From assembly GCA_964536865.1 (NCBI GenBank), contig CAZHYN010000011.1:15248-47247 (forward strand): 32,000 nt of DNA. Direction: 5' to 3'. The notes beneath the pieces were generated by a model, which ran no database searches, was not told where the DNA came from, and saw only the letters and a list, made by a program, of their open reading frames with translations. Within the stretch, counting starts at the first letter, position 1, and every line of letters begins with the position of its first letter. Made by a program: the position numbers and the translations under genes. Positions 3,345 to 14,561 of this stretch are shown piece by piece. Source of the DNA: an uncultured Planctomycetia bacterium (lineage in GTDB: Bacteria; Omnitrophota; Gorgyraeia; Duberdicusellales; 4484-171).

Positions 3345-3935
3345 ATGTTTAAGCAAATATTGAAAGAATTAAGAAGGCACGCTCCCTTTACCAGTTTAGG
3401 AGCCTTTACTGGTATTATTATCATGATAATCTCCTATAAGCTCCCTGCCAGGACTTCTTATAATATCTTTTATATACTTCATCCTCTCCATGTTCTTTTA
3501 AGCGCATTAGTCACTGCTTCTATGTATAAACTTTATAAAGATAAGGCTAAATTCTGGAATCTAATCTTAATTGGTTATGGGGGTTCGGTTGGTATAGCTA
3601 CATTGAGCGATTGTGTAATTCCTTATTTGGGTGAGATATTATTAAATCTGCCTAATAGAGGTATTCATTTGGGATTTATTGAAAAATGGTGGTTAGTAAA
3701 TCCTTTGGCATTTATAGGTATTGCTGTAGCTTATTTTAAGCCAACAACCAAATTTCCTCATTCCGGTCATGTTCTCTTAAGCACCTGGGCATCCCTATTT
3801 CATATTATTATGGCAATAGGGCAGACTCTGAACTGGTTTTCTTATATAGTTGTCTTTTTATTTTTGTTTCTTGCGGTGTGGTTTCCTTGTTGTTTAAGCG
3901 ATATCATATTTCCCTTATTGTTTGTGAGAAAATGA
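3345..3935 (+). CDS. Uncharacterised polytopic membrane protein with His motifs (candidate metal transporter; family not recognised)
   Basis: About 6 hydrophobic helices and His clusters HPLH, FPHSGH and LFH. Strong SD GAGGAGG 5 nt before the ATG, with the Fur-box-like dyad immediately upstream. Confidence 0.7.
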   Translation: MFKQILKELRRHAPFTSLGAFTGIIIMIISYKLPARTSYNIFYILHPLHVLLSALVTASMYKLYKDKAKFWNLILIGYGGSVGIATLSDCVIPYLGEILLNLPNRGIHLGFIEKWWLVNPLAFIGIAVAYFKPTTKFPHSGHVLLSTWASLFHIIMAIGQTLNWFSYIVVFLFLFLAVWFPCCLSDIIFPLLFVRK

Positions 3936-4281: not shown

Positions 4282-4309
4282 TTGACGCATTCTTTTATTA
4301 TGATATAAG
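4282..4309 (+). promoter_or_regulatory. Candidate promoter of arsR-def: TTGACG, 16-nt spacer, TATAAG
   Basis: TTGACG at 4282-4287 and TATAAG at 4304-4309. An imperfect AT-rich inverted repeat (TTATTATGATAT ... ATATACATATAATAA) overlaps the -10 region and could be the ArsR operator. Confidence 0.35.
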
Positions 4310-4336
4310 AATATATACATATAATAAGGAAGGAGG

Positions 4337-4627
4337 ATGTCTATGATAGATTATAGAAAGATAGCTGATTTTTTTGATGCCCTTTCTCATCCTATTCGGC
4401 TAAGAATAGTAGTGGAGTTACTGAGAGGTAGAAGGTGTGTGGGAGATATAAGAGAGTTAGTAGAGACTAAACAACCAAATGCCTCTCGTCACCTCTTACT
4501 TTTGAAGTTTAACGGTATTGTAGACTGGAGACAGGAGGGACGGATGAAGTGTTACTTTTTAAGGAGTCCTCAATTAATAAAAGATATTTTAAAAGTATTG
4601 GAGAAAAACAAACTAAGTAAGCTTTAG
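4337..4627 (+). CDS. ArsR/SmtB-family transcriptional regulator
   Basis: HTH pattern FDALSHPIRLRIVVELLRGRRCVGDIRELVETKQPNASRHLLLLKFNGIV...GRMKCYFL. The SD GGAGG abuts ATG 4337, so ATG 4343 may be the true start. Confidence 0.85.
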   Translation: MSMIDYRKIADFFDALSHPIRLRIVVELLRGRRCVGDIRELVETKQPNASRHLLLLKFNGIVDWRQEGRMKCYFLRSPQLIKDILKVLEKNKLSKL

Positions 4628-4659: not shown

Positions 4660-5154
4660 ATGAAAAAAAACAGAGAGCAGTTCTTAGAGATTAGGAAGTA
4701 TCCAGACAAGATTTTAAGAGAGAAATGTCAACCTGTGGAGGAGATTACATCGAGAGAGAAAGATATATTTACAAATATGCTTTTTACTATGAAATATTTT
4801 AGAGGAATAGGCTTAGCTGCTCCTCAGGTAGGGATTCTTAGAAATTTAATTGTAATAGATATTGGAGAGGGAATTATAAAATTAGCAAATCCCAAAGTTA
4901 TTAAGAGAAAGGGCGAAGAGGAGGAGATGGAGGGTTGCTTAAGTATTCCTGGCACAGGGGTTAGTGTAAAGAGATCTTATGAGATTGTGGTAGAGGCTTT
5001 AAATCAAGAAGGTAAGCTTATAGAGGTAAAGGCAAAGGGTCTTCTAGCAAGAGTATTACAACATGAGATAGATCATTTAGAAGGGAAGTTAATTATAGAT
5101 TATTTACCATTTTTAGAGAAGATAAAATTTAGATTAAAGAGAAGGAATAGATGA
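4660..5154 (+). CDS. def: Peptide deformylase
   Basis: All three signature motifs are present: GIGLAAPQVG, EGCLSIPG and HEIDHLEG. Confidence 0.95.
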   Translation: MKKNREQFLEIRKYPDKILREKCQPVEEITSREKDIFTNMLFTMKYFRGIGLAAPQVGILRNLIVIDIGEGIIKLANPKVIKRKGEEEEMEGCLSIPGTGVSVKRSYEIVVEALNQEGKLIEVKAKGLLARVLQHEIDHLEGKLIIDYLPFLEKIKFRLKRRNR

Positions 5155-5184: not shown

Positions 5185-6240
5185 ATGTTAGTGGATGGAA
5201 GGACAAGAGATTTATTGAGAGAAAAGTTTGATCAAGAATTGGAAGAGAAAGTAGATATTAAAGTTTTTACTCGTTCAATTATCATTGATAGTGAAAGCTT
5301 AGAGAGTGCTAGATTAGCTGAAAGTTTAGTAAGAGAACTTTCTCAAATTAGTAGTAAGATAATACCAGAATTTATGAGTTTAGAAGACAATTTAGCTAAA
5401 GAGCTAAATCTATCAGTTTCTCCTACAATTCTAATAGGAAGGGATAAAGATTATAATATTCAATTTTGGGGAAATTCTTTCATTTGGATACCTCAGGTAT
5501 TTATTGAAACAATATCTTTGGTATCTCAAGGAAAGAGCAAGTTAGAGTCGAAGTTAGTTAGTAAGTTAAGGAATATAGATAGGGAACTTCTTGTGGATAT
5601 ATATTTTAATCGTCAATTACTCATTTCTAATTCATTAGGACTATTAGCCATTAGGATAGCAGTGGAATTTCCTAAAATGATTAAAGTACGGTTTAGAGGG
5701 GAACAAAAAACTGAAGATAGAATAGGGAAGCTAGCTTTATTAAAATTACCAGCTATCTTGATAAACGGTGAAAGAGACTCCTTACTTACACCTCCTATCT
5801 CGGAGACTGAGTTTATAAAGAGGCTTATTTTATATGGAGCTCCCCATAGGAAGGAGCTTATTGTTGAATTAGAGGAAGAGGAGAAGAAGAAGTTTGAATT
5901 GGTAGATAATCCAGACTCTCCTATTTTACTTTCTCATAAGAATTTTGATGAGGCAGTAAGAAGGTATGTTATTCTTGTAGTAGACTTCTGGGCACAGTGG
6001 TGTGCTCCCTGTTTGATGTTGGCTCCCATAATAGAGAGATTGGCGAAAAAGTATAAAGGGAAGATAGTTTTTGGAAAGTTAAATATAGAAGAGAACCAAG
6101 AGATAGCTTCTCGTTTTGGGATAATGTCTATTCCTACCTTAATTATCTTTAAAAAAGGTAATATTATGGATACTCTTATTGGAGTAATGCCGGAGTCTAC
6201 ATTGGAGGAAAAATTCAATATGTATTTAGAGAAAAGATAA
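5185..6240 (+). CDS. Fusion protein: Cys-less PDO/AhpF-N-terminal-like double thioredoxin-fold module plus a C-terminal thioredoxin (WCAPC)
   Basis: The C-terminal 110 aa form a typical Trx (VVDFWAQWCAPCLMLAPI...KLNIEENQEIASRFGIMSIPTLIIFKKG). The N-terminal 230 aa align by eye with archaeal protein-disulfide-oxidoreductase units (PTILIGRDKDYNIQFWG, LRNIDRELLVDIYF, LPAILINGER), but both CxxC positions lack Cys. Confidence 0.75.
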   Translation: MLVDGRTRDLLREKFDQELEEKVDIKVFTRSIIIDSESLESARLAESLVRELSQISSKIIPEFMSLEDNLAKELNLSVSPTILIGRDKDYNIQFWGNSFIWIPQVFIETISLVSQGKSKLESKLVSKLRNIDRELLVDIYFNRQLLISNSLGLLAIRIAVEFPKMIKVRFRGEQKTEDRIGKLALLKLPAILINGERDSLLTPPISETEFIKRLILYGAPHRKELIVELEEEEKKKFELVDNPDSPILLSHKNFDEAVRRYVILVVDFWAQWCAPCLMLAPIIERLAKKYKGKIVFGKLNIEENQEIASRFGIMSIPTLIIFKKGNIMDTLIGVMPESTLEEKFNMYLEKR

Positions 6241-6264: not shown

Positions 6265-6360
6265 ATGAGAAAGGATGAACAAATAGAAAGGATAATTCAA
6301 GGAAAGCTGGAGAGGTATTGTTTGATAGATTGTAGAGATTCCAAAGGAGGGATGGTATGA
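6265..6360 (+). CDS. Speculative 31-aa ORF (MRKDEQIERIIQGKLERYCLIDCRDSKGGMV) ending in an ATGA overlap with the DUF59 gene
   Basis: The stop TGA at 6358-6360 overlaps ATG 6357-6359. Contains a CxxxC pair. No convincing SD upstream. Confidence 0.15.
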   Translation: MRKDEQIERIIQGKLERYCLIDCRDSKGGMV

Positions 6361-6653
6361 AGATGCAGGAGAGGATTGAGAAAGCTCTAAAGAGTATAGA
6401 GCATCCTGAAATTGCATATACTCTTTGGGAATTAGGAATGCTTGAAGGGATTGTTGTTAAAGAAGATAAGGTGTTAGTTACTTTGAAACTTCCTAGAGTA
6501 GGTGTGCCCATTCGAGAACAATTGATAGAGAGTATCAAGAGTGCTGTGAAAAATGAAAATGTTCATATAGATGTTAAGATAAGTATAAAAGAAATGAGTG
6601 ATGAGGAACGTATAAGATTTATGAAGATGGCCCAAGAAGCATGGAAAGGATAA
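6357..6653 (+). CDS. DUF59/MIP18-family (Fe-S cluster assembly/carrier-like) protein
   Basis: Pattern ALKSIEHPEIAYTLWELGMLEGIVVKEDKVLVTLKLP is typical of DUF59 (SufT/PaaD-like) proteins. SD GGAGGG upstream. Confidence 0.65.
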   Translation: MKMQERIEKALKSIEHPEIAYTLWELGMLEGIVVKEDKVLVTLKLPRVGVPIREQLIESIKSAVKNENVHIDVKISIKEMSDEERIRFMKMAQEAWKG

Positions 6654-6654
6654 A

Positions 6655-7611
6655 ATGAGTTCTTTTGAGAAAAATGAAAAAATAGAACGGAAAGAGGTAT
6701 TAATAATTGGAGGTGGTCCGGCAGGACTTAGTGCAGGAATCTACGCTGGATATTTTGGAATTGAGGCATTAATTCTTGAGAAGGGAATCTTGGGAGGCGT
6801 AGCGGGAGAAATTCCTCTGTTAGAGAACTATCCTGGGATTGAGAGTAAAATTACAGGTAGAGATTTAATAGAAAGAATGGTGAGAAGATGTGATGAGGTA
6901 GGAGTAGAGAGGCATCAGTTTGAAGAGGTTGTTAAATTACAACTTAAAGATACACCTAAAGTAGTGGAAACAGATAAGTCTAAATATCTTGCTGATAATG
7001 TAATTATTGCCTCAGGAAGAGCTCATAGAACATTGGGGGTAGTAGGAGAGGAGGAGTTTAGGGGAAGAGGAGTAAGCTACTGTGCTGTGTGTGATGGAGC
7101 TTTCTTCAAGAATAGGAAAGTGACAGTAATAGGAGAAAGTTTTCCTGTTGTAGAAGTTGCTTTATATTTTTCTAATTTAGCATCGGAAGTAGTTCTAGTG
7201 TATTTAGGTTCTAAAATAGATATAGAAAAGAGTTTAATCACTAGATTAGAAGAAAAGAAAGTAAAACTTCTAAAAAACGTAGAGGTGAAGGAGATTAAAG
7301 GAGAAGTTAAAGTAAGAAGTGTGGTTGTAGGGGATAAAAAAACACACGTTACTAAGGAGATAGACACCGATGGTGTATTCTTTCAGGTAGAGGGAATTCC
7401 CCAGAGCAGACTAGCGAAAGAGGCAGGGGTGAGGGTAGACAAAGAAGAATATGTGATTATAGATGAAAAGATGAGAACCAATATTAAAGGAGTGTATGCT
7501 ATCGGCGATGTTACTAGTTGTGAAGTTAAACGGATAATTACTGGAGTTGCTCAGGCTTTAGTAGCCATCACGGATATATTTAGGGAGAAAGCCGGATATG
7601 TTACAAAATAA
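6655..7611 (+). CDS. Thioredoxin-reductase-like flavoprotein lacking the NADPH-binding signatures
   Basis: FAD motif IIGGGPAGLSAG, redox-active CAVCDG, and distal GVYAIGDV. The second dinucleotide motif reads VTVIGESFPVVE instead of GGGxxA, and the HRRxxxR position reads VYLGSKID. Confidence 0.85.
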   Translation: MSSFEKNEKIERKEVLIIGGGPAGLSAGIYAGYFGIEALILEKGILGGVAGEIPLLENYPGIESKITGRDLIERMVRRCDEVGVERHQFEEVVKLQLKDTPKVVETDKSKYLADNVIIASGRAHRTLGVVGEEEFRGRGVSYCAVCDGAFFKNRKVTVIGESFPVVEVALYFSNLASEVVLVYLGSKIDIEKSLITRLEEKKVKLLKNVEVKEIKGEVKVRSVVVGDKKTHVTKEIDTDGVFFQVEGIPQSRLAKEAGVRVDKEEYVIIDEKMRTNIKGVYAIGDVTSCEVKRIITGVAQALVAITDIFREKAGYVTK

Positions 7612-9382
7612 TCCAGAAAAGCGAATAGGTATTTTTGTTTGTCATTGTGGTAAGAATATCGCAGGAGGAGTAGATGTTCAAGGGTTAGTTGAATTTTCAA
7701 AACATCTTGAGGGTGTAACTTTTGCTACAGATAACAAATTCTGTTGTTCCCAAGAGGGACAGATTATTATTCAAAAAGCGATAAAAGAGAATAATCTAAG
7801 TAGATTTATTGTAGCTGCCTGTAGTCCCAATCTTCATTTAGGGACATTTCAGAGATGTGGTAAAGAAGTAGGGGTAGAGGAAGCATTCGTTGACCTAATT
7901 GATATTAGGAAATGGACTATGTCTGGTAGTCCCTACAAAGTCAATCCTCAAGAAGCTTTTGAGAATTCTAAGAAGCTTATTAGTCAGGCAGTAAAAAGAA
8001 TGCGTCTTAAGCGATTAATTCCTAAAGTTAATGTGAAAGTTGAACAATCAGTATTGGTCATTGGAGGAGGTATAGCAGGTTTAGAGGTAGCTTTGGACTT
8101 AGGAGAGAAGGGGTATAAAGTTTACATTGTAGAACGTCTTCCTACCATTGGAGGCAAGATGGCTTTGCTCTATAAGGTTTTTCCTACAAATGATTGTGCA
8201 CCTTGTATACTAGCGCCTAAGACTGCTTATGCCAACATTCATCCTAATATAGAGATCTTTACTAATGCAGAAGTTACCAATGTGAAGGGATATATAGGGA
8301 ATTTTGAGGTTACAATTACTCAGAATCCTCGCTATGTTGATGAGAGTAAGTGTACAGGATGTGGAATATGTGTAGATAAGTGTCCTGTGGAGGTAATAGA
8401 TAAGGAATTTTCAGGAGGGTTGGGAAAACGGAAAGCAATATATATCCCTTACGAACAAGCAGTTCCTAAGAAAGCCACTATTGACTCTCAAAATTGTCTC
8501 TACTTTAGAAAGGGTATTTGTAAGGTGTGTGAAAAAGTTTGTCCTCAGAATGCTGTAGATTTTCATCAGCAGACTAAAACAGTAACATTAAAGGTAGGGA
8601 GTATAGTTGTGGCTACAGGTTTTGATGAATACGAGCCTACCAAGAAAGTAGAGTATGGATACACTCGGTATAAGGATGTTATTACCCAGTTTCAATTAGC
8701 TCGGCTTTTAGATATAGATGGACCTACAAAGGGGAGACTTATAAGACCCAGCGATGGAAAAGAGCCAAAGAGGATTGCTATGATTCAGTGTGTGGGGTCG
8801 CGAGATGAAAATGCAAATAAGTATTGTTCTTCTGTTTGCTGTATGTATGCTTTAAAGCATGCCCAAATAATAAAAGAGATGATTTCCTCTGATATCGAGA
8901 TTTATATTTGTTATATAGATATGCGAACACCAGGAAAAGGATTTGAGGAATACTACCGACAGACAAGAGAGTTAGGAGTTAATTTTATTCATGGTAGACC
9001 AGCAGAGGTAATAGAAAACTTTGATAAGAAGAATTTTATTTTAAAAGTTGAAGATAAAGATATAGGAGCACTTCTTAACTTGGAAGTAGATCTAGTGGTA
9101 TTGTCTTGTGCTATAGTTCCTTCAAAAGGAGCTGAGCGTCTTTCGGAAATTTTGCACATAAATTTGGATGAAAATGGTTTCTTTCAGGAAGTCCATCCTA
9201 AACTTAGACCGGTAGAGACAAATATAAGAGGAATCTACATCTGTGGATGTGCCCAAGGACCAAAGGATATTCCCGACTCTATTACTCAAGCCAAGGCTGT
9301 TGCCTCTTGTATAGACAGTGAATTGAGAAAAGGAAGTATAGAACTTCCTGAGTTTATGATAAAGGCAGAGAGACCAAATTAG
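7598..9382 (+). CDS. hdrA: HdrA-like FAD/Fe-S flavoprotein (heterodisulfide reductase subunit A family), without the C-terminal ferredoxin domain
   Basis: GIFVCHCGKNIAGGVDV...CC...AACSPN; FAD fold VLVIGGGIAGLEVALDLGEKGYKVYIVE; inserted ferredoxin CTGCGICVDKCP and CKVCEKVCP; CVGSRD...CSSVCCMY; GCAQGPKDIP. Overlaps the preceding gene by 14 nt. Confidence 0.88.
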   Translation: MLQNNPEKRIGIFVCHCGKNIAGGVDVQGLVEFSKHLEGVTFATDNKFCCSQEGQIIIQKAIKENNLSRFIVAACSPNLHLGTFQRCGKEVGVEEAFVDLIDIRKWTMSGSPYKVNPQEAFENSKKLISQAVKRMRLKRLIPKVNVKVEQSVLVIGGGIAGLEVALDLGEKGYKVYIVERLPTIGGKMALLYKVFPTNDCAPCILAPKTAYANIHPNIEIFTNAEVTNVKGYIGNFEVTITQNPRYVDESKCTGCGICVDKCPVEVIDKEFSGGLGKRKAIYIPYEQAVPKKATIDSQNCLYFRKGICKVCEKVCPQNAVDFHQQTKTVTLKVGSIVVATGFDEYEPTKKVEYGYTRYKDVITQFQLARLLDIDGPTKGRLIRPSDGKEPKRIAMIQCVGSRDENANKYCSSVCCMYALKHAQIIKEMISSDIEIYICYIDMRTPGKGFEEYYRQTRELGVNFIHGRPAEVIENFDKKNFILKVEDKDIGALLNLEVDLVVLSCAIVPSKGAERLSEILHINLDENGFFQEVHPKLRPVETNIRGIYICGCAQGPKDIPDSITQAKAVASCIDSELRKGSIELPEFMIKAERPN

Positions 9383-9395
9383 GAGGTGGTAGAGT

Positions 9396-9665
9396 ATGGC
9401 TGAGATCTATATAGAAGAATTTATGTCACCAGGATGTGTAGGTTGTCCAGCGGTAAAACAGATGCTTGAAGAGTTAGTAAAGGAGTTAGATGGGGAGATT
9501 ACTATAGAGGAGGTGGATATAAGTGTCGATAGTGCAAGAGCTATTCAGTATGGGGTGATGTCCGTTCCAGCTATAGCTATTAACGGAATATTGAAATTCA
9601 TAGGTGTCCCAAAGAAAGAAGATTTAAGGAAAGCCTTGGAGGAGGAGTTAAAAAAGGATGGATAA
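9396..9665 (+). CDS. Small thioredoxin-fold protein (glutaredoxin-like/Thioredoxin_3 type), active site CVGC
   Basis: 89 aa with SPGCVGCPAVKQMLEEL...VMSVPAIAINGILKFIGVP, resembling archaeal mini-thioredoxins. SD GGAGGTGG upstream. Confidence 0.8.
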   Translation: MAEIYIEEFMSPGCVGCPAVKQMLEELVKELDGEITIEEVDISVDSARAIQYGVMSVPAIAINGILKFIGVPKKEDLRKALEEELKKDG

Positions 9666-10188
9666 GAAGGAGCTATTTAGCCAACCTATTTCAAACGTTA
9701 ATTTCGATCCTACTTTTGAAGCTGAAGTTATAGCTCATGAGGAGGCTAAAGATTTGAAGGCTTGTTTTAACTGTGGAGCTTGTACAGCAGGATGTCCTAT
9801 TCATGAAGTATTTCCTGAGTATGATCCTAAGAAGTTAGCTAAGATGGTAAGGTTAGGAATGAGAAAGGAGGTATTAAGTAGTCCTTATATTTGGTATTGT
9901 GCTACTTGTCACAACTGCGAACAACGTTGTCCTCAGAATGTTAAGTTTTTCAATGTTTTAAACGTCTTAAAGAATATGGCAGCTAAGGAAGGATATGCTC
10001 CTTCTGTATGGGTTGATCAGATAAAACATGTTATTAAGACAGGAATAATATTCCCCCCCCAAGAGAGTTGGATTAAAAGAAGGGAGAAGCTTTCTCTCCC
10101 CCCTTTAAGGTTGGAGGAGAGAGAAGAAATAAAAAAGATAATTGAACTGGAGGAGATTGATAGGTTAAGTAAGGATAAGAGTGAGTGA
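9658..10188 (+). CDS. hdrC: HdrC-like 2x[4Fe-4S] subunit
   Basis: CFNCGACTAGCP and CATCHNCEQRCP motifs with HdrC-like spacing. Overlaps neighbours by 8 nt on each side. Confidence 0.82.
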   Translation: MDKKELFSQPISNVNFDPTFEAEVIAHEEAKDLKACFNCGACTAGCPIHEVFPEYDPKKLAKMVRLGMRKEVLSSPYIWYCATCHNCEQRCPQNVKFFNVLNVLKNMAAKEGYAPSVWVDQIKHVIKTGIIFPPQESWIKRREKLSLPPLRLEEREEIKKIIELEEIDRLSKDKSE

Positions 10189-11056
10189 GTATGCTTTATT
10201 TTTAGGATGTACTACTCCTACAAAAGCTGTTCAATATGAGCTTGCTTCAAGATGGGTCTGCAGGCATTTAGAAATTAACCTAGTAGATATTAAAGATTTT
10301 TTTTGTTGTGGGATAAATCACGTTAATTTGGATAGAGAGACAGCACTTCTTATGGCAGCAGCAAACTTAGCTTATGCTGAAGCCAAAGGATTAGATATAC
10401 TTACTCTCTGTGCCGCTTGTACAGGAGCGCTTTCCGAAGCAATAGAGAAGTTAGAGAATTTCCAGATAAGAGAAAGGGTAAATGAAAAGTTACATAGAAT
10501 AGGCATAGAATATAAAGGAAAAGTTAGAGTAAAACATCTCTCTAGAGTTCTTTACGAAGATATAGGAGTAGAGAGATTGAGAAGAAGTATAAAAAGAGAT
10601 CTTTCTCAGCTCAAAGTAGCTCCCCATTATGGATGCCATTACTTGAAACCAAAAACTGCCCTAAGAGGAGTCGATGAGCCAGATAATCCTACAACATTAC
10701 ATGCTCTTATATCTGCTATAGGAGCTACTCCCGTAGAATATGAAACACTTAATCTTTGTTGTGGGGGTAAGGTATTTCCTGTTTCTGGAGAGTTAGCCCA
10801 TTCATTAATCCAGAAGAAGCTGGATAATTTGAAGGAGAAGGAAGTAGATGCAATGGTTCTTCAATGTCAGACTTGCTATCTTATGTATGGGGAAGAACAA
10901 AAGGAAATAGAAGGAAAGAGTGGTAAGAAATACAACCTACCAGTTATTTTTTACCCCCAACTCTTAGGAGTGGCTTTAGGAGCAGATCCTATAAAAGATT
11001 TAGGGTTTAATTTTCATACTATTTCTGTGGATGGTCTTTTAAGTAAAGTGAGATAG
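10181..11056 (+). CDS. hdrB: HdrB-like subunit with two complete CCG domains
   Basis: Domain 1: LGC...FFCCGINH...LCAACTG. Domain 2: HYGCHYLKP...LCCGGKV...LQCQTCYL. Both show the Cx(n)CCGx(n)CxxC pattern. GTG start overlaps the hdrC stop. Confidence 0.85.
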   Translation: MSEYALFLGCTTPTKAVQYELASRWVCRHLEINLVDIKDFFCCGINHVNLDRETALLMAAANLAYAEAKGLDILTLCAACTGALSEAIEKLENFQIRERVNEKLHRIGIEYKGKVRVKHLSRVLYEDIGVERLRRSIKRDLSQLKVAPHYGCHYLKPKTALRGVDEPDNPTTLHALISAIGATPVEYETLNLCCGGKVFPVSGELAHSLIQKKLDNLKEKEVDAMVLQCQTCYLMYGEEQKEIEGKSGKKYNLPVIFYPQLLGVALGADPIKDLGFNFHTISVDGLLSKVR

Positions 11057-11065
11057 GAAGTTTCG

Positions 11066-11650
11066 ATGTATTCTAAAGTAAGAAAGTGGTTGGAGGAGGA
11101 TGGAGAAAAATTCTTAAGGAAAGTTGGACTTAGGAGGGGGCAAATAGTGTTAGATTTTGGATGTGGAGAAGGACATTATACTATTCCTGCAAGTAAAGTA
11201 ATTGGGGAAAAAGGTAAGGTCTATGCTTTTGATAAGGATGCTTATATACTAGAGAGACTAAGAAGATTAGCCGAAGAAGAAGGATTAAGCAACATAGAGA
11301 TAATTAAAGGGGATACCAAGATTCCTTTAGAAGATAACTCTATTGATGTAGTTCTCTGTTATGACGTTATCCATTATGAAAAATATAGAGAGAGGATTTA
11401 TAAAGAAGTCTTTCGTATTTTAAAATCAGAGGGCTTCTTTTCTCTTTATCCTAAGCACTATAGAGATGATTATCCTCTGATGGAGTTAGCATCTTTAGGA
11501 TTGGAAGAAGTAATAAAAGAAGTAGAGAAAGTTGGTTTTACTTTACAAGAAAAATTGTTCTATCAGTGTCTTCATGATGAATATTACAATGAGTGCTGTA
11601 TATTAAATTTTATTATTTCTGAAGAGAAAAAGGAGGAAAGTAGTGTTTAA
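11066..11650 (+). CDS. Class I SAM-dependent methyltransferase
   Basis: Motif I VLDFGCGEGHYT, post-I acidic residue (YAFDKD), and motif II/III-like IDVVLCYDVIHY...ILKSEGFF. Confidence 0.8.
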   Translation: MYSKVRKWLEEDGEKFLRKVGLRRGQIVLDFGCGEGHYTIPASKVIGEKGKVYAFDKDAYILERLRRLAEEEGLSNIEIIKGDTKIPLEDNSIDVVLCYDVIHYEKYRERIYKEVFRILKSEGFFSLYPKHYRDDYPLMELASLGLEEVIKEVEKVGFTLQEKLFYQCLHDEYYNECCILNFIISEEKKEESSV

Positions 11651-11936
11651 AGTAGATGAGAAAAAGTGTATCGGATGTGGAGCTTGTATAAATGTTTGCC
11701 CTGTTGGCGCAATATCAATGAAGGATGGAAAAGCTAAGATTGATGTAAAGAAATGTTTAAACTGTGGGAAGTGTGCTCAAGTTTGTCCTCAAGAAGCGAT
11801 CTATTCTGAGTCAGGTGAATTCCAAAGTAAATTTATTCCTAGACCAGGTTTTAATTTCTTTACTTTTAGTAGAGGGAGAGGTATGTCTGGAAGGAGAAAG
11901 AAAGGTTTTGGTAGGGGAAGAGGAGGGAGGTGGTGA
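11643..11936 (+). CDS. 2x[4Fe-4S] ferredoxin with an Arg/Gly-rich C-terminal tail
   Basis: CIGCGACINVCP and CLNCGKCAQVCP, then a tail SRGRGMSGRRKKGFGRGRGGRW. GTG start overlaps the methyltransferase gene by 8 nt. Confidence 0.8.
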   Translation: MFKVDEKKCIGCGACINVCPVGAISMKDGKAKIDVKKCLNCGKCAQVCPQEAIYSESGEFQSKFIPRPGFNFFTFSRGRGMSGRRKKGFGRGRGGRW

Positions 11937-12105
11937 GAGAATTTTTATTAATGAACTCTCTAAGAGCATAAGAGGGTTATAATTTCCCTCGGAGTTTTCT
12001 TAGTAGAGGAGGAGGCCTTATAGAATTATTTAGAAAGGCTTGGAAGGATAATTTTATTGAATTTAGGTGTGGAGCAAAAATTGAGATTTAATTCTGGAGG
12101 TAATT

Positions 12106-12750
12106 ATGAAGATTACAATAATTTCTGATAATACCATTTATAATAAAGAGTTAAGGAGTGAATGGGGCTTCTCTTGTTTAGTAGAAATAGAAAATTTACC
12201 TAAGATTCTATTTGACACAGGAGCAAGTGGAGAGGTTTTATTGGGGAATATGGAAAAGTTAAAAATTCGTCCTGAGGAGATTACAACTATTTTTATTTCC
12301 CACGATCACTGGGATCATACAGGAGGGTTGAGCAGTTTTTTAAAAATTAATAACAGAATTAAACTTTATGTTCCTGAGTCATTTTCTTCTCATCCCGAAG
12401 TGAAAGAATTTATCAAAGTGAGAGATTCTATAGAAATTTTTGATAATGTTTTTTCTACGGGAGAATTACTGGGAATAGAACAATCTCTAATAGTAAAATT
12501 AAGAAAGGAAGTAGTTGTGATTGTAGGGTGTTCCCACCCAGGAGTAAAAAATATTTTAAAGGAAGCTTCTAAGTTTGGAAGAGTTATTGCCTTAATTGGA
12601 GGTCTGCATGGATTTAGAGAATTCGATTTGGTTAAGAATTTAGATTTTATATGTGCTACACATTGTACCCAGTATAGAGAGGAAATAAGAAGATTGTATC
12701 CAGGTAAATTTATAGAAGGAGGTTCAGGCAAGCTAATAAAGATAGAATAG
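12106..12750 (+). CDS. MBL-fold metallo-hydrolase
   Basis: ISHDHWDHTGG (HxHxDH) motif. N-terminus ITIISDN...EWGFSCLVE...ILFDTGASG resembles the small MBL family often annotated as dihydropterin-derivative synthase-like. SD GGAGG upstream. Confidence 0.8.
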   Translation: MKITIISDNTIYNKELRSEWGFSCLVEIENLPKILFDTGASGEVLLGNMEKLKIRPEEITTIFISHDHWDHTGGLSSFLKINNRIKLYVPESFSSHPEVKEFIKVRDSIEIFDNVFSTGELLGIEQSLIVKLRKEVVVIVGCSHPGVKNILKEASKFGRVIALIGGLHGFREFDLVKNLDFICATHCTQYREEIRRLYPGKFIEGGSGKLIKIE

Positions 12751-12905: not shown

Positions 12906-13385
12906 ATGGAAAGAGAAGAGGCATTGCGTCTGTTAGAGAGTAATCTCAAAAATAAGAACTTGATTAACCATAGTTTAGCAGTGGAAGCCTGTATGGGGAA
13001 GTTGGCACAAAGTCTTAACGAAGATGAGAAGAGTTGGGCTTTAGCCGGGCTTCTCCATGACTTAGATTATCAGGAGACAAGGGGAGATTTTTCTAGACAC
13101 GGATTTGTTACTGCGGAAATTTTGAAGGAAAAGGAGGTGGATGAAGAGATAATCGAAGCTATAAAGGCTCATCCTGGTCATATTGAGAGGAAGACAAAGA
13201 TGGCTAAGGCTTTATATGCTGTTGATCCTTTAACGGGATTAATCATAGCATCTGCTTTAATGCATCCTCAGAGGAAATTAGAAGCTTTGGATACTCGGTT
13301 TGTTATGAATAGATTTAAAGAAAAAAGTTTTGCTAGAGGAGCTAATCGAGAACAGATAAAAAGCTGTGAAGAGTTAGGGCTCTAA
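12906..13385 (+). CDS. HD-domain phosphohydrolase; the apparent 3' frameshift leaves the conserved C-terminus (to 13453) in another frame
   Basis: HSLAVEACM...LLHDLDY...KAHPGH motifs. The frame stops at ...CEELGL*. The +2 frame from 13385 continues with SLEEFIDICLEAMREIKEDLGL*, which looks like the family's usual C-terminal helix. Confidence 0.8.
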   Translation: MEREEALRLLESNLKNKNLINHSLAVEACMGKLAQSLNEDEKSWALAGLLHDLDYQETRGDFSRHGFVTAEILKEKEVDEEIIEAIKAHPGHIERKTKMAKALYAVDPLTGLIIASALMHPQRKLEALDTRFVMNRFKEKSFARGANREQIKSCEELGL

Positions 13386-13659
13386 GTTTGGAGGAATTTA
13401 TAGACATTTGCTTGGAGGCAATGAGAGAGATTAAAGAAGATCTTGGATTGTAAGAATAGAGATTCTGTAATGAAGAGTACAGGTAAGGAGATAAGTGTTA
13501 ATTTTAAGCAAAAAAGGATTTAGATTCTAAATGTGATGCAAATTATGGATGGGTAGACACTTTAAAGGGTAACAAAGAGCATCTTCTTCTTCATATTAAA
13601 GAAATTCCCCATGATTGTTGAATACTACATTTGTGTTTCTTAAAGGTAAGAAAGGAGGG

Positions 13660-13980
13660 ATGATGGAGGTTAGAGTGGATGATACAAATTTCCAGCAGGA
13701 AGTATTAGAGTCAGATATTCCAGCTTTAGTAGATTTTTGGGCTCCTTGGTGTATGCCTTGTCATATAGTTGCTCCTATTCTTTCTGAGATTGCTATAGAG
13801 TATGAGGGAAAGTTGAAGGTATGTAAGTTAAATGTTGACGAAGCTCCTAATATCGCTTCCCGGTATGAAGTAATGAGTATACCTACCTTGGCACTGTTTA
13901 AAAAAGGTGAAATGGTAGACAAAATTATTGGTGCTGTTGGTAAGCCCGAATTAGAAAATATGGTTAAATATTATATTTGA
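13660..13980 (+). CDS. trxA: Thioredoxin (active site WCMPC)
   Basis: FQQEVLESDIPALVDFWAPWCMPCHIVAPIL...KLNVDEAPNIASRYEVMSIPTLALFKKGE. SD AAAGGAGGG immediately precedes ATG 13660; the track start at 13615 is a TTG with no SD. Confidence 0.92.
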   Translation: MMEVRVDDTNFQQEVLESDIPALVDFWAPWCMPCHIVAPILSEIAIEYEGKLKVCKLNVDEAPNIASRYEVMSIPTLALFKKGEMVDKIIGAVGKPELENMVKYYI

Positions 13981-14072: not shown

Positions 14073-14150
14073 GGCCCCATCGTCTAGCCCGGTTAAGGAT
14101 ACGTGGTTCTCAGCCACGAGGCACGGGTTCAAATCCCGTTGGGGCTGCCA
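14073..14150 (+). tRNA. tRNA-Glu (anticodon CUC), CCA encoded
   Basis: Manual cloverleaf: acceptor GGCCCCA/TGGGGCT (G1-U72), D stem GTCT/GGAT, anticodon stem CGTGG/CCACG with loop TTCTCAG, T arm ACGGG-TTCAAAT-CCCGT, discriminator G, then CCA. A T-run follows. Confidence 0.9.
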
Positions 14151-14276
14151 CTTTTTTATCTTTCTAAAAATTTCCTCTTCTATTTTTTAACCCAGAGAAG
14201 GTCTTTTCAGTATTTTTCTCTGAGTGAAGACTTGAAAATTGCATATTTATATGTTATATCTCAACTGCTGAGCAAG

Positions 14277-14561
14277 ATGGAGGATAGAGGGAATAAGAAA
14301 GTTAAAATATGCAAAATATGCAATGAGGAATTTATTCCTGACAAATTTCATCCTTATCAGGAAGTTTGTTCAAAGCCCCAATGCCAAAAGGTAAGGCAAT
14401 TAGAAAATCAAAAGAGATGGCGACTTAAAAATCCTGATTATTTTAAATACAAGAGTAAAAAAACTCCTTGGGAGAGAAGACGTTGGGAATACCTTAAGAG
14501 GTGGAGAGAAACCCATAAGGACTATTTTAAATTGTATAGAAGAAAGAAAAAATTAAGTTAG
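14277..14561 (+). CDS. Orphan zinc-ribbon protein with a Trp/Arg/Lys-rich repeated tail (94 aa)
   Basis: CKICNEEF...CSKPQC (CxxC...CxxxxC), then two similar segments QKRWRLKNPDYFKY and LKRWRETHKDYFKL. The SD is weak. Residues upstream in the track ORF overlap tRNA-Glu and are not coding. Confidence 0.5.
   Translation: MEDRGNKKVKICKICNEEFIPDKFHPYQEVCSKPQCQKVRQLENQKRWRLKNPDYFKYKSKKTPWERRRWEYLKRWRETHKDYFKLYRRKKKLS

Follow-up and report, generated by a model that had tools for sequence, protein, structure and literature searches.

Introduction

Heterodisulfide reductase (Hdr) complexes are already known to accept different input modules. In the methanogen enzyme, MvhD feeds the flavin of HdrA through the C-terminal ferredoxin domain of that subunit, the high-potential output runs through HdrC to HdrB, and the low-potential output runs through the N-terminal cluster and an inserted ferredoxin domain to ferredoxin. 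Glu356 of HdrA positions Lys409 at N5 of the flavin, and the pair has been proposed to separate bifurcating from non-bifurcating enzymes (PMC12054007). A recent structure paper proposed, in addition, a thiol relay through Cys/Sec197 beside the HdrA flavin. Among thioredoxin reductases (TrxRs), the FFTR enzymes are NADPH-independent and receive their electrons from ferredoxin; another such enzyme, DvTRi, still had no identified electron donor in 2017. Here we describe a locus in which these two groups of proteins stand side by side. It is a five-gene core encoding a TrxR-like flavoprotein, HdrA, a mini-thioredoxin (mini-Trx), HdrC and HdrB, and it lies in a 32,000-nucleotide stretch of contig CAZHYN010000011.1 (assembly GCA_964536865.1, from an uncultured bacterium of the Omnitrophota lineage) that is referred to below as the window.

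An earlier note on the window had described an eight-gene operon in which an Hdr-like complex was built into a thioredoxin (Trx) system, and had proposed a protein-disulfide reductase, possibly electron-bifurcating or confurcating. We report that five of the eight genes are a conserved unit and that the others are variable accessories. The reading that we prefer, tentatively and at a little under an even chance, is that positions 6655-11056 encode one soluble five-subunit Fe-S/flavin complex for NAD(P)H-independent, ferredoxin-driven disulfide reduction. That the subunits form a complex, that ferredoxin is the donor, which way the electrons flow and what HdrB reduces are all deduced here from sequence, synteny and published structures.

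Results

The TrxR-like, HdrA, mini-Trx, HdrC and HdrB genes recur in the same order in 35 loci from bacteria and archaea. These loci (numbered with the prefix L) were reached from three independent anchors, namely HdrA (L001-L024), TrxR (L081, L082 and L161-L166) and mini-Trx (L167-L169). The HdrA scan, which took one genome per species, returned 80 loci, and 16 window proteins were compared with them by tblastn. At HdrA identities of 63-75%, all 24 loci have the TrxR gene directly 5' and the mini-Trx gene directly 3' of hdrA, followed by hdrC and hdrB where the contig permits. Wherever the contig allows the position to be seen, TrxR is upstream of HdrA (21/21 loci) and mini-Trx is downstream (22/23), the sole exception having a masked run of N at the expected position. 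Below about 50-52% identity the TrxR and Trx genes are gone, L045 excepted, and the order becomes HdrC-HdrB-HdrA. The TrxR-anchored metagenome scan matched mostly generic TrxRs through the common CDGAFFKN pattern, and only two matches, of at least 48% identity, fall within the cluster; 78 ordinary TrxRs (33-41% identity) without an Hdr neighbour served as a negative control. Three more proteins of the TrxR clade and three mini-Trx proteins on long contigs were all found inside the same five-gene core.

Clustering of the neighbouring genes showed that only the five core genes are near-universal, and that the methyltransferase, ArsR, ferredoxin, DUF59 and PDO-like::Trx genes, among others, come and go. 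The eight-gene unit proposed at first thus contracts to five genes, given that DUF59 was seen in only 3 loci, the methyltransferase in about 10 and the ferredoxin in about 8. The carriers are labelled as Omnitrophota, Auribacterota, 'Planctomycetia', Aminicenantes/Acidobacteriota, Gemmatimonadota, Desulfobacteraceae, Eubacteriales, Methanobacteriota and Bathyarchaeia, labels that are uncertain for binned metagenome-assembled genomes (MAGs). All of the loci come from MAGs or metagenomes, and no isolate genome was among the cluster carriers found. Gene order is kept across bacteria and archaea despite evident horizontal spread.

Conservation on this scale is far beyond chance expectation, and the coincidental juxtaposition of redox genes that had been allowed for as an alternative is contradicted by it; the genes are a real conserved system. 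A related explanation is that a Trx system and a stand-alone HdrABC are independent and merely co-regulated, sharing a stress operon. The varying accessory content would agree with this, as would the failure to find fusion proteins and the habit of stress operons of gathering unrelated redox genes. We nevertheless regard it as very improbable, since the co-occurrence is strictly reciprocal from three anchors, the mini-Trx gene is placed between hdrA and hdrC, the two flavoproteins have complementary clade-specific losses (described below), and gene order is the same in bacteria and archaea even though the cluster has spread horizontally. TrxR and HdrA also co-diverge: the correlation of their pairwise-distance matrices (r = 0.87-0.91) is equally as tight as that of the known partners HdrB and HdrC (r = 0.88-0.92).

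Two archaeal loci hold a trio of TrxR, HdrA and mini-Trx genes with no CCG-domain gene nearby (L018 from Bathyarchaeia, 7064-10138; L045 from Thermoplasmata, 7995-11427), and because of these HdrBC looks peripheral to the TrxR/Trx link, so that the earlier proposal of HdrBC acting on a Trx-type disulfide calls for revision. The L045 trio is highly divergent, with CASC in a TrxR of 33% identity, CQDC in the Trx and Ile at the Glu356 position of HdrA. The L018 trio adjoins a DUF438-hemerythrin-PAS sensor.

Gene domains were assigned by Pfam and NCBIfam profile searches, and the NCBIfam equivalog cutoffs were used as a class test. The window TrxR-like protein scores 277.9 bits against TIGR01292 (equivalog cutoff 343.45). 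Its GxGxxG motif for flavin adenine dinucleotide (FAD), IIGGGPAG, is invariant, as are the Phe-Phe Trx-docking residues F150 and F151, and all 53 TrxR-clade sequences examined have the redox-active CAVC; the roles of the CxxC and docking residues are taken from the literature on NADPH-independent TrxRs (DvTRi). The window protein has VIGESFPVVEVA (GESFPV) in place of GGGxxA and YLGSKIDIEKS in place of HRRxxxR, and in every bacterial copy GGGxxA is degenerate (e.g., GEGSPA or GGNSRA) and HRRxxxR is missing. The proposal that this TrxR cannot bind NADPH is in keeping with these degenerate motifs, from which the incapacity is predicted, but it does not extend to the whole clade, because three Bathyarchaeia orthologues (L018-L020) retain canonical GGGNSA and HRRxxLR.

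In a neighbour-joining tree, which is midpoint-rooted and carries no support values, the Hdr-linked TrxRs form one clade separate from ordinary TrxRs, and the NADPH-competent Bathyarchaeia proteins are the basal sister of all motif-less bacterial copies. The basal position of copies with intact motifs indicates that the association of TrxR with Hdr is older than the loss of the NADPH site. We argue that, since the association came first, the loss would have been tolerable only if HdrA feeds electrons to the TrxR-like protein. The TrxR-like proteins would be a further, separate lineage among the NADPH-independent TrxRs, new and provided with a candidate partner. An AlphaFold2 (AF2) model of the window protein (mean predicted local distance difference test score, pLDDT, 84.5) has the normal two-domain TrxR architecture in the flavin-oxidising (FO) conformation. 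Foldseek gave template-modelling (TM) scores of 0.80-0.85 to FO-state TrxRs, with 3cty (Thermoplasma acidophilum) best by E-value. Membership in the FFTR family was considered and rejected: ordinary NADPH-type TrxRs match at about 1e-53, whereas the E-values are 1.9e-29 with 6gna and 3e-37 with 5j60, and the TM score to 5j60 is 0.54. The AF2 model does not lie near FFTR/DTR.

HdrA has changed in a complementary way. The window protein scores 701 bits against the HdrA2 model (cutoff 1100) over model positions 1-569 of 777, and it aligns with 5odc_A (E = 8.5e-180) over residues 3-575 of 654. Because the alignment stops at residue 575, the protein has no C-terminal ferredoxin domain and neither of the two clusters of that domain. 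It does keep its N-terminal cluster domain, its FAD/TrxR-fold domain and the ferredoxin domain that is inserted, so that the earlier statement that HdrA retains its FAD fold and Fe-S motifs is right for these parts and wrong for the C-terminal clusters. The 26 linked HdrAs, including the window copy, are 590-624 aa long; most non-linked HdrAs are about 655-700 aa or longer and keep the C-terminal domain. Invariant features of the linked proteins are the N-terminal cluster Cys residues, a CAPC pair equivalent to Cys194 and Cys197, the eight Cys residues of the inserted domain, and CCMYALK with Lys409 (K420 in the window). What is lost is exactly the C-terminal ferredoxin domain, yet both output chains remain. 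At the position of Glu356, 25 of the 26 linked HdrAs have Ala (Ala368 in the window) and one has Gly; Glu356 is present in 52/55 non-linked HdrAs.

These features bear on the possibility that the complex is a three-port bifurcating or confurcating enzyme, with the Trx couple (acting through the TrxR-like protein) at mid potential, ferredoxin at low potential and the HdrB substrate at high potential. In the bifurcating direction, reduced Trx would drive the reduction of ferredoxin coupled to that of a high-potential disulfide; in the confurcating direction, reduced ferredoxin and a weak thiol donor would jointly reduce two Trx. All three canonical Hdr ports are present and only the donor port has been swapped, Lys409 and both Fe-S output chains are conserved, HdrBC with its ten invariant Cys residues is kept in all bacterial loci, and the CAPC equivalent of the proposed Cys/Sec197 relay is invariant. 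Typical potentials are about -270 mV for Trx, about -450 mV for ferredoxin and about -140 mV for a disulfide like that of coenzyme M and coenzyme B (CoM-S-S-CoB). The energetics would be roughly balanced, because the potential of Trx lies between the other two. However, Glu356, the proposed hallmark of bifurcating HdrAs, is replaced by Ala across the linked clade, and this uniform change, together with the loss of the input domain, weakens the bifurcation idea as it was first put forward. The trio-only variants lack HdrBC, the stress-island context favours net reduction of Trx over energy conservation, and these bacteria have no known candidate for the high-potential disulfide. On balance we consider three-port coupling unlikely, though by no means far-fetched, and it is the strongest competitor of the reading that we prefer. 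Slightly less likely still is that the complex is the first bifurcating or confurcating flavoenzyme with a protein dithiol as its mid-potential two-electron substrate, in which the mini-Trx would shuttle electron pairs between the CAVC of the TrxR-like protein and the CAPC pair next to the flavin of HdrA. If that is the case, Trx redox state, ferredoxin and a disulfide or persulfide bound to HdrB would be linked energetically, and the thioredoxin pool of many uncultivated anaerobes would be tied directly to low-potential energy metabolism.

HdrB falls below its NCBIfam cutoff (248 bits), and the early observation that both of its CCG domains are complete is confirmed by the ten CCG Cys residues, invariant in 18/18 orthologues. 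HdrC is also below cutoff (100 bits), with its eight Cys residues invariant in 20/20 orthologues. The mini-Trx scores 83.9 bits against TIGR00411 (cutoff 92.75), and its CVGC and SVPA are invariant. Its gene always stands just 3' of hdrA, as an insertion between hdrA and hdrC. The protein keeps SPGCxxCP and the cis-Pro and is 68-82% identical across phyla; the family collapses to one 50%-identity representative (P0241, 113 bits). A generic small Trx comes next among full-length relatives, at 68 bits, which leaves the family a discrete cluster well apart from other small Trxs. Every Hdr and TrxR score is under the curated equivalog cutoff, which marks these proteins as divergent paralogues of the characterised enzymes, and no characterised Hdr was matched at the equivalog level.

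Given the thiol relay proposed beside the HdrA flavin, it is possible that the mini-Trx exchanges directly with the CAPC pair of HdrA. An alternative role for the Trx proteins is maintenance or regulation, in which the TrxR-like protein and mini-Trx re-reduce the CxxC or oxidised cluster ligands of Hdr, or act on Hdr as a redox switch. A discrete mini-Trx family so well conserved across phyla fits a dedicated protein client, the invariant CAPC pair offers a target, and oxidative-stress genes are neighbours. We find this explanation quite improbable, because it leaves unexplained both the reductant of the NADPH-less TrxR and the confinement of HdrA input-domain loss to the linked clade, and it would give Hdr no electron donor module.

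All eight plus-strand open reading frames (ORFs) of the cluster are present in the ORF list, their domain calls were each confirmed by Pfam and NCBIfam, and the PDO-like::Trx fusion before the cluster and trxA after it are also in place (Table 1). The junctions are those described at the outset: a 1-nt gap between DUF59 and TrxR, a 14-nt overlap between TrxR and HdrA, a 13-nt gap between HdrA and mini-Trx, 8-nt overlaps at mini-Trx/HdrC and HdrC/HdrB, a 9-nt gap between HdrB and the methyltransferase, and an 8-nt overlap between the methyltransferase and the ferredoxin. Gaps of 2 nt or overlaps of 4-14 nt at junctions suggest translational coupling.

Table 1. Coordinates of the core genes and of the features around them, as positions in the window.
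Feature	Position	Strand	Role or remark	Basis
DUF59/FeS_assembly_P protein	6357-6653	+	accessory	Pfam/NCBIfam
TrxR-like flavoprotein, 318 aa	6655-7611	+	core	Pfam/NCBIfam, motifs, AF2/Foldseek, tree
HdrA, 594 aa	7598-9382	+	core	NCBIfam HdrA2 model, alignment to 5odc_A
MJ0307-type mini-thioredoxin, 89 aa, SPGCVGCP and cis-Pro SVPA	9396-9665	+	core	
HdrC, 176 aa, 2x[4Fe-4S], 8 invariant Cys	9658-10188	+	core	
HdrB, 291 aa, two CCG domains	10181-11056	+	core	
Small S-adenosylmethionine (SAM) methyltransferase	11066-11650	+	accessory	
2x[4Fe-4S] ferredoxin, Gly/Arg-rich C-terminal tail	11643-11936	+	accessory; candidate redox partner	
PDO/AhpF-N-terminal-like double Trx fold fused to WCAPC thioredoxin	5185-6240	+	accessory	
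ArsR/SmtB-family helix-turn-helix protein	4337-4627	+	probable regulator; two invariant Cys	
Promoter/operator-like region 5' of arsR	4282-4336	+	conserved across relatives	
Canonical thioredoxin trxA, WCMPC	13615-13980	+	nearby	

The neighbourhoods of the core are consistently themed on thiol and sulfur redox chemistry, and they fit a role in thiol or sulfur stress. Recurrent neighbours are TrxA, Trx-Grx fusions, the Cys-free PDO-like::Trx protein, an AhpD-like carboxymuconolactone decarboxylase (CMD) and a flavoprotein of the CoA-disulfide-reductase/Nox family. To these can be added DsrE/TusD-like and TauE proteins, metallo-beta-lactamase (MBL)-fold proteins, peptide deformylase, a Fur-family regulator, and the Fe-S carriers MrpORP or DUF59. 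In 8 related loci a trxA gene lies a short way upstream of the core, and an MrpORP/ApbC Fe-S carrier gene lies a few genes 5' of it in L161 and L169. No hydrogenase, formate dehydrogenase (FDH), MvhD or Flx module was found in the window or among the neighbours examined in related loci, and the 32-kb window contains no Mvh, Fdh, Flx, LbpA, DsrE or TusA gene. The absence of the known Hdr partners from the window, as first noted, therefore stands; it does not carry over to all relatives, since a DsrE/TusD-like gene is directly 5' of the TrxR gene in L161, L162 and L169.

That gene raises the question of whether the substrate is reactive sulfur. According to this variant, which concerns the substrate and is compatible either with ferredoxin-driven reduction or with bifurcation, the per/polysulfides cleaved by HdrBC would be of low molecular weight or bound to DsrE, and proteins would be depersulfidated by Trx. 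The recurrence of TauE, the CoA-disulfide-reductase-like flavoprotein and MBL-fold proteins near the core points in the same direction as the DsrE/TusD-like gene, and the ArsR/SmtB regulator has BigR as its best specific match, if a weak one (43 bits, where the cutoff is 155). On the other hand, the DsrE, TauE and CoA-disulfide-reductase-like genes are all missing from the window, such neighbours occur in a minority of loci, and LbpA, TusA and rhodanese were not seen at all. We judge the variant improbable.

The ArsR/SmtB protein has invariant Cys residues in 'KCVxDI' and 'KCYFL', and its gene heads the operon in several loci; arsR is upstream of the core in L001, L006, L010, L165, L166 and L169. 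Its 5' region is conserved in L001, L006, L009, L010, L165 and L169, with a -35 element TTGAC, a T-rich spacer and the extended -10 element TGATATAA. The relatives have an inverted repeat, CATATTC-N8-GAATATG, ahead of the ribosome-binding site, and the window has a variant with AT-rich inverted repeats of its own. The operator consensus from upstream of arsR is not enriched elsewhere in the window, where a search for more copies found 3, with 2.2 expected.

In the PDO-like::Trx fusion, the PDO-like N-terminal two-thirds has no Cys residue, and WCAPC is found only in the C-terminal Trx domain. The Cys-free part is accordingly predicted to be a redox-inactive double Trx fold, like the N-terminal domain of AhpF or the b-domain of PDI. 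The same architecture, 349-351 aa long, occurs downstream of hdrB in L001, L011, L163 and L164. The methyltransferase gene is often translationally coupled to hdrB. We considered whether its product might be a redox client, served by HdrB or Trx at a C-terminal C-x8-CC, and dropped the idea, the Cys residues being present only in the window copy.

The ferredoxin gene is found mainly in an Omnitrophota-like subclade. The C-terminal third of the window ferredoxin is a Gly/Arg-rich tail, SRGRGMSGRRKKGFGRGRGGRW, and the ferredoxins linked to the cluster in L003, L005 and L009 have tails like it. In L007 and L009 there is a second type of ferredoxin, whose tail is a coiled coil, and L169 has a DUF5320 gene. 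The idea that the operon ferredoxin is the C-terminal domain of HdrA split off as a separate protein found no specific support, as it scores 44 bits with the HdrA2 model and 55-61 bits with generic ferredoxin models. A protein of 113-128 aa is encoded near the cluster-linked ferredoxins in L003 (4414-4797), L005 (4552-4938), L007 (6818-7168), L009 (13710-14048) and L169 (11118-11486), directly 3' of the ferredoxin gene in L003, L005 and L169. It is not encoded in the window, and it has no Pfam or NCBIfam match.

Several other genes of the window are worth recording. The peptide deformylase gene def (4660-5154, +) is separated by only 30-32 nt from arsR on one side and from the PDO-like::Trx gene on the other, and def is also near the cluster in L023 and L169, an unusual site for a housekeeping gene; the placement may reflect the oxidation sensitivity of the metal-cysteine site of the enzyme. 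Directly 3' of a Fur-family gene, positions 3345-3935 (+) encode a 196-aa six-helix membrane protein that is also encoded near the core in L009, L011 and L016. It has 7,901 homologues, 70-77% identical across phyla and all named 'hypothetical', with the invariant motifs LHPxH, PHxGH and WxPCCxSD. Neither Pfam nor NCBIfam has a match, and Foldseek found no relative in the PDB for its AF2 model (pLDDT 78.5; best E-value 2.5). This looks like a large unannotated family that probably binds metal. A small MBL-fold protein (214 aa, 12106-12750, +) and an HD-domain protein (12906-13385, +) are encoded 3' of the cluster; in L163 and L164 the core is likewise flanked by an MBL protein (212 aa) and an HD protein, and L009 has an HD homologue (69% identity). 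After trxA comes a 152-aa Lys/Arg- and Cys-rich ORF (14103-14561, +) with no Pfam match.

The remaining genes of the window are ordinary chromosomal housekeeping genes, and the identical or 98% identical database matches of the window proteins carry the label Candidatus Omnitrophica. Every credible gene in positions 1-32000 is on the plus strand, and the GC skew is positive almost throughout, with a near-monotonic rise in cumulative skew, consistent with a long co-directional leading-strand stretch. The mfd-surA-pdxA-ksgA order is common to the window and L165, where it is inverted. A scan of the window for promoters and terminators that might mark transcript limits gave counts at or below shuffle expectation.

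Discussion

How might an Hdr complex that has lost its usual donor work with a TrxR that has lost its own? In the mechanism that we tentatively favour, the TrxR/Trx couple would replace the Hdr input module, i.e., hydrogenase, FDH or Flx together with MvhD and HdrA's C-terminal ferredoxin domain. Reduced ferredoxin would load the clusters in the ferredoxin domain inserted into HdrA and the HdrA FAD. From there, electrons would pass to the FAD and CAVC of the TrxR-like protein, or through a thiol relay of the HdrA CAPC pair and mini-Trx, to thioredoxins. In a parallel branch, HdrC would hand electrons to two non-cubane clusters of HdrB and on to a second substrate, for which a low-molecular-weight disulfide or a per/polysulfide is a candidate. 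The module would operate within a thiol- or sulfur-stress gene island under a two-Cys repressor of the ArsR type.

The argument for this arrangement is one of parsimony. Only the input port of Hdr has been removed, a TrxR and Trx have been added, and the TrxR has no donor site of its own, which together suggest that TrxR/Trx occupies the vacated port. The flow from ferredoxin through HdrA to the TrxR-like protein and Trx is favoured because the association predates the loss of the NADPH site and because the FFTR enzymes provide a precedent. Also in keeping with a ferredoxin-fed hub are the change of Glu356 to Ala, the existence of trio-only variants, the stress genes around the core, the frequency of accessory ferredoxins and the lack of any other input module.

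A number of observations pull the other way. In 120 TrxR-clade clusters, 227 relatives of the mini-Trx and an exhaustive search of 1.84 billion representatives, no TrxR or Trx was found fused to an Hdr subunit. The TrxR-like protein has no Fe-S cluster, which leaves communication between its FAD and HdrA unexplained. A plain route from ferredoxin to Trx needs no HdrBC, yet intact HdrBC is present in every bacterial locus, and this retention suggests three-way coupling; with Lys409 retained, the flavin could still bifurcate. Many loci have no ferredoxin gene. In L167, moreover, a canonical NAD(P)H-type TrxR (GGGNHA, HRSKQFR) and a 108-aa TrxA are encoded directly after the Hdr-linked cluster and on the opposite strand (10759-11999, -), so that the module there is additional and is not needed merely to run the Trx system.

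Whichever mechanism applies, the locus stands where two gaps meet: the donor of the NADPH-less TrxRs of anaerobes, and the partners and substrates of the widespread HdrABC-like complexes of bacteria. It offers a testable partner for both, namely an HdrA-type Fe-S flavoprotein for the TrxR and a TrxR/Trx couple for Hdr. Automatic annotation calls the genes 'thioredoxin reductase (NADPH)' and 'CoB-CoM heterodisulfide reductase', names that probably mislead in both cases. Among uncultivated lineages of sediment and groundwater, Omnitrophota, Auribacterota, Aminicenantes and Bathyarchaeia included, the module is common; it would alter genome-based reconstruction of their thiol redox homeostasis and ferredoxin economy, and it may show how such organisms maintain reduced protein thiols without NADPH. 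The earlier suggestion that the combination is uncharacterised agrees with our finding no description of a TrxR-Hdr cluster in the open-access full-text literature, which leaves most subscription journals outside its coverage.

Each part has its place in a known superfamily (low-Mr TrxR, MJ0307-like Trx or HdrABC), and the module fails the defining features of each system considered; the TrxR/Trx couple would be a new kind of Hdr input module. On the TrxR side, the flavoprotein resembles the FFTRs of Clostridium pasteurianum (6GNA) and Gloeobacter (5J60) in its low-Mr TrxR fold, its CxxC, its lack of functional NADPH motifs and a presumed Fe-S donor. It belongs to another lineage, and whereas FFTR is a free homodimer served by soluble ferredoxin, the TrxR-like gene here is locked to hdrA. 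DvTRi of Desulfovibrio vulgaris, the T. acidophilum TrxR (3CTY) and DFTR have likewise lost the NADPH motifs and kept the CxxC and Trx-docking residues, and the F420-dependent DFTR of M. jannaschii goes with an MJ0307-type Trx, the group to which the mini-Trx is assigned at a score just under the model cutoff. Unlike those enzymes, for which no Hdr linkage has been reported, the linked TrxRs form a separate monophyletic clade.

On the Hdr side, the closest relatives are the methanogen complexes MvhADG-HdrABC and FdhAB-HdrABC (5ODC, 7BKB, 8RVU), whose HdrA is a close homologue with Lys409, the Cys194/197 equivalents and the inserted ferredoxin domain, whose HdrC has the same eight Cys residues and whose HdrB has the same two complete CCG motifs. 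The module differs from them in having no hydrogenase, FDH or MvhD, an HdrA without the C-terminal ferredoxin domain and Glu356, scores below cutoff, TrxR-like and Trx genes built into the operon, and hosts that are mostly bacteria. As a rule bacteria do not make CoB, and CoM-S-S-CoB is an unlikely substrate there. The sHdr system (HdrAB1C1B2C2 with LbpA, DsrE and TusA) is also a bacterial Hdr-like system, and a DsrE/TusD-like neighbour is found in some relatives of the locus. The module, by contrast, has a single HdrB/HdrC pair and no LbpA or TusA, and its HdrA has 594 aa against about 350 aa in sHdrA, with 6tjr (sHdrA) matching the window protein only over residues 332-570. The FlxABCD-HdrABC complex of sulfate reducers and HdrA2B2C2 of Methanosarcina are alike in joining Hdr to an alternative input module, and HdrA2 is the best model for the window HdrA. 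The module departs from both in having no flx genes, no fused MvhD and a score that misses the 1100-bit cutoff, and in the nature of its partner, which is a disulfide oxidoreductase couple here and an NADH or F420H2 dehydrogenase in Flx and HdrA2.

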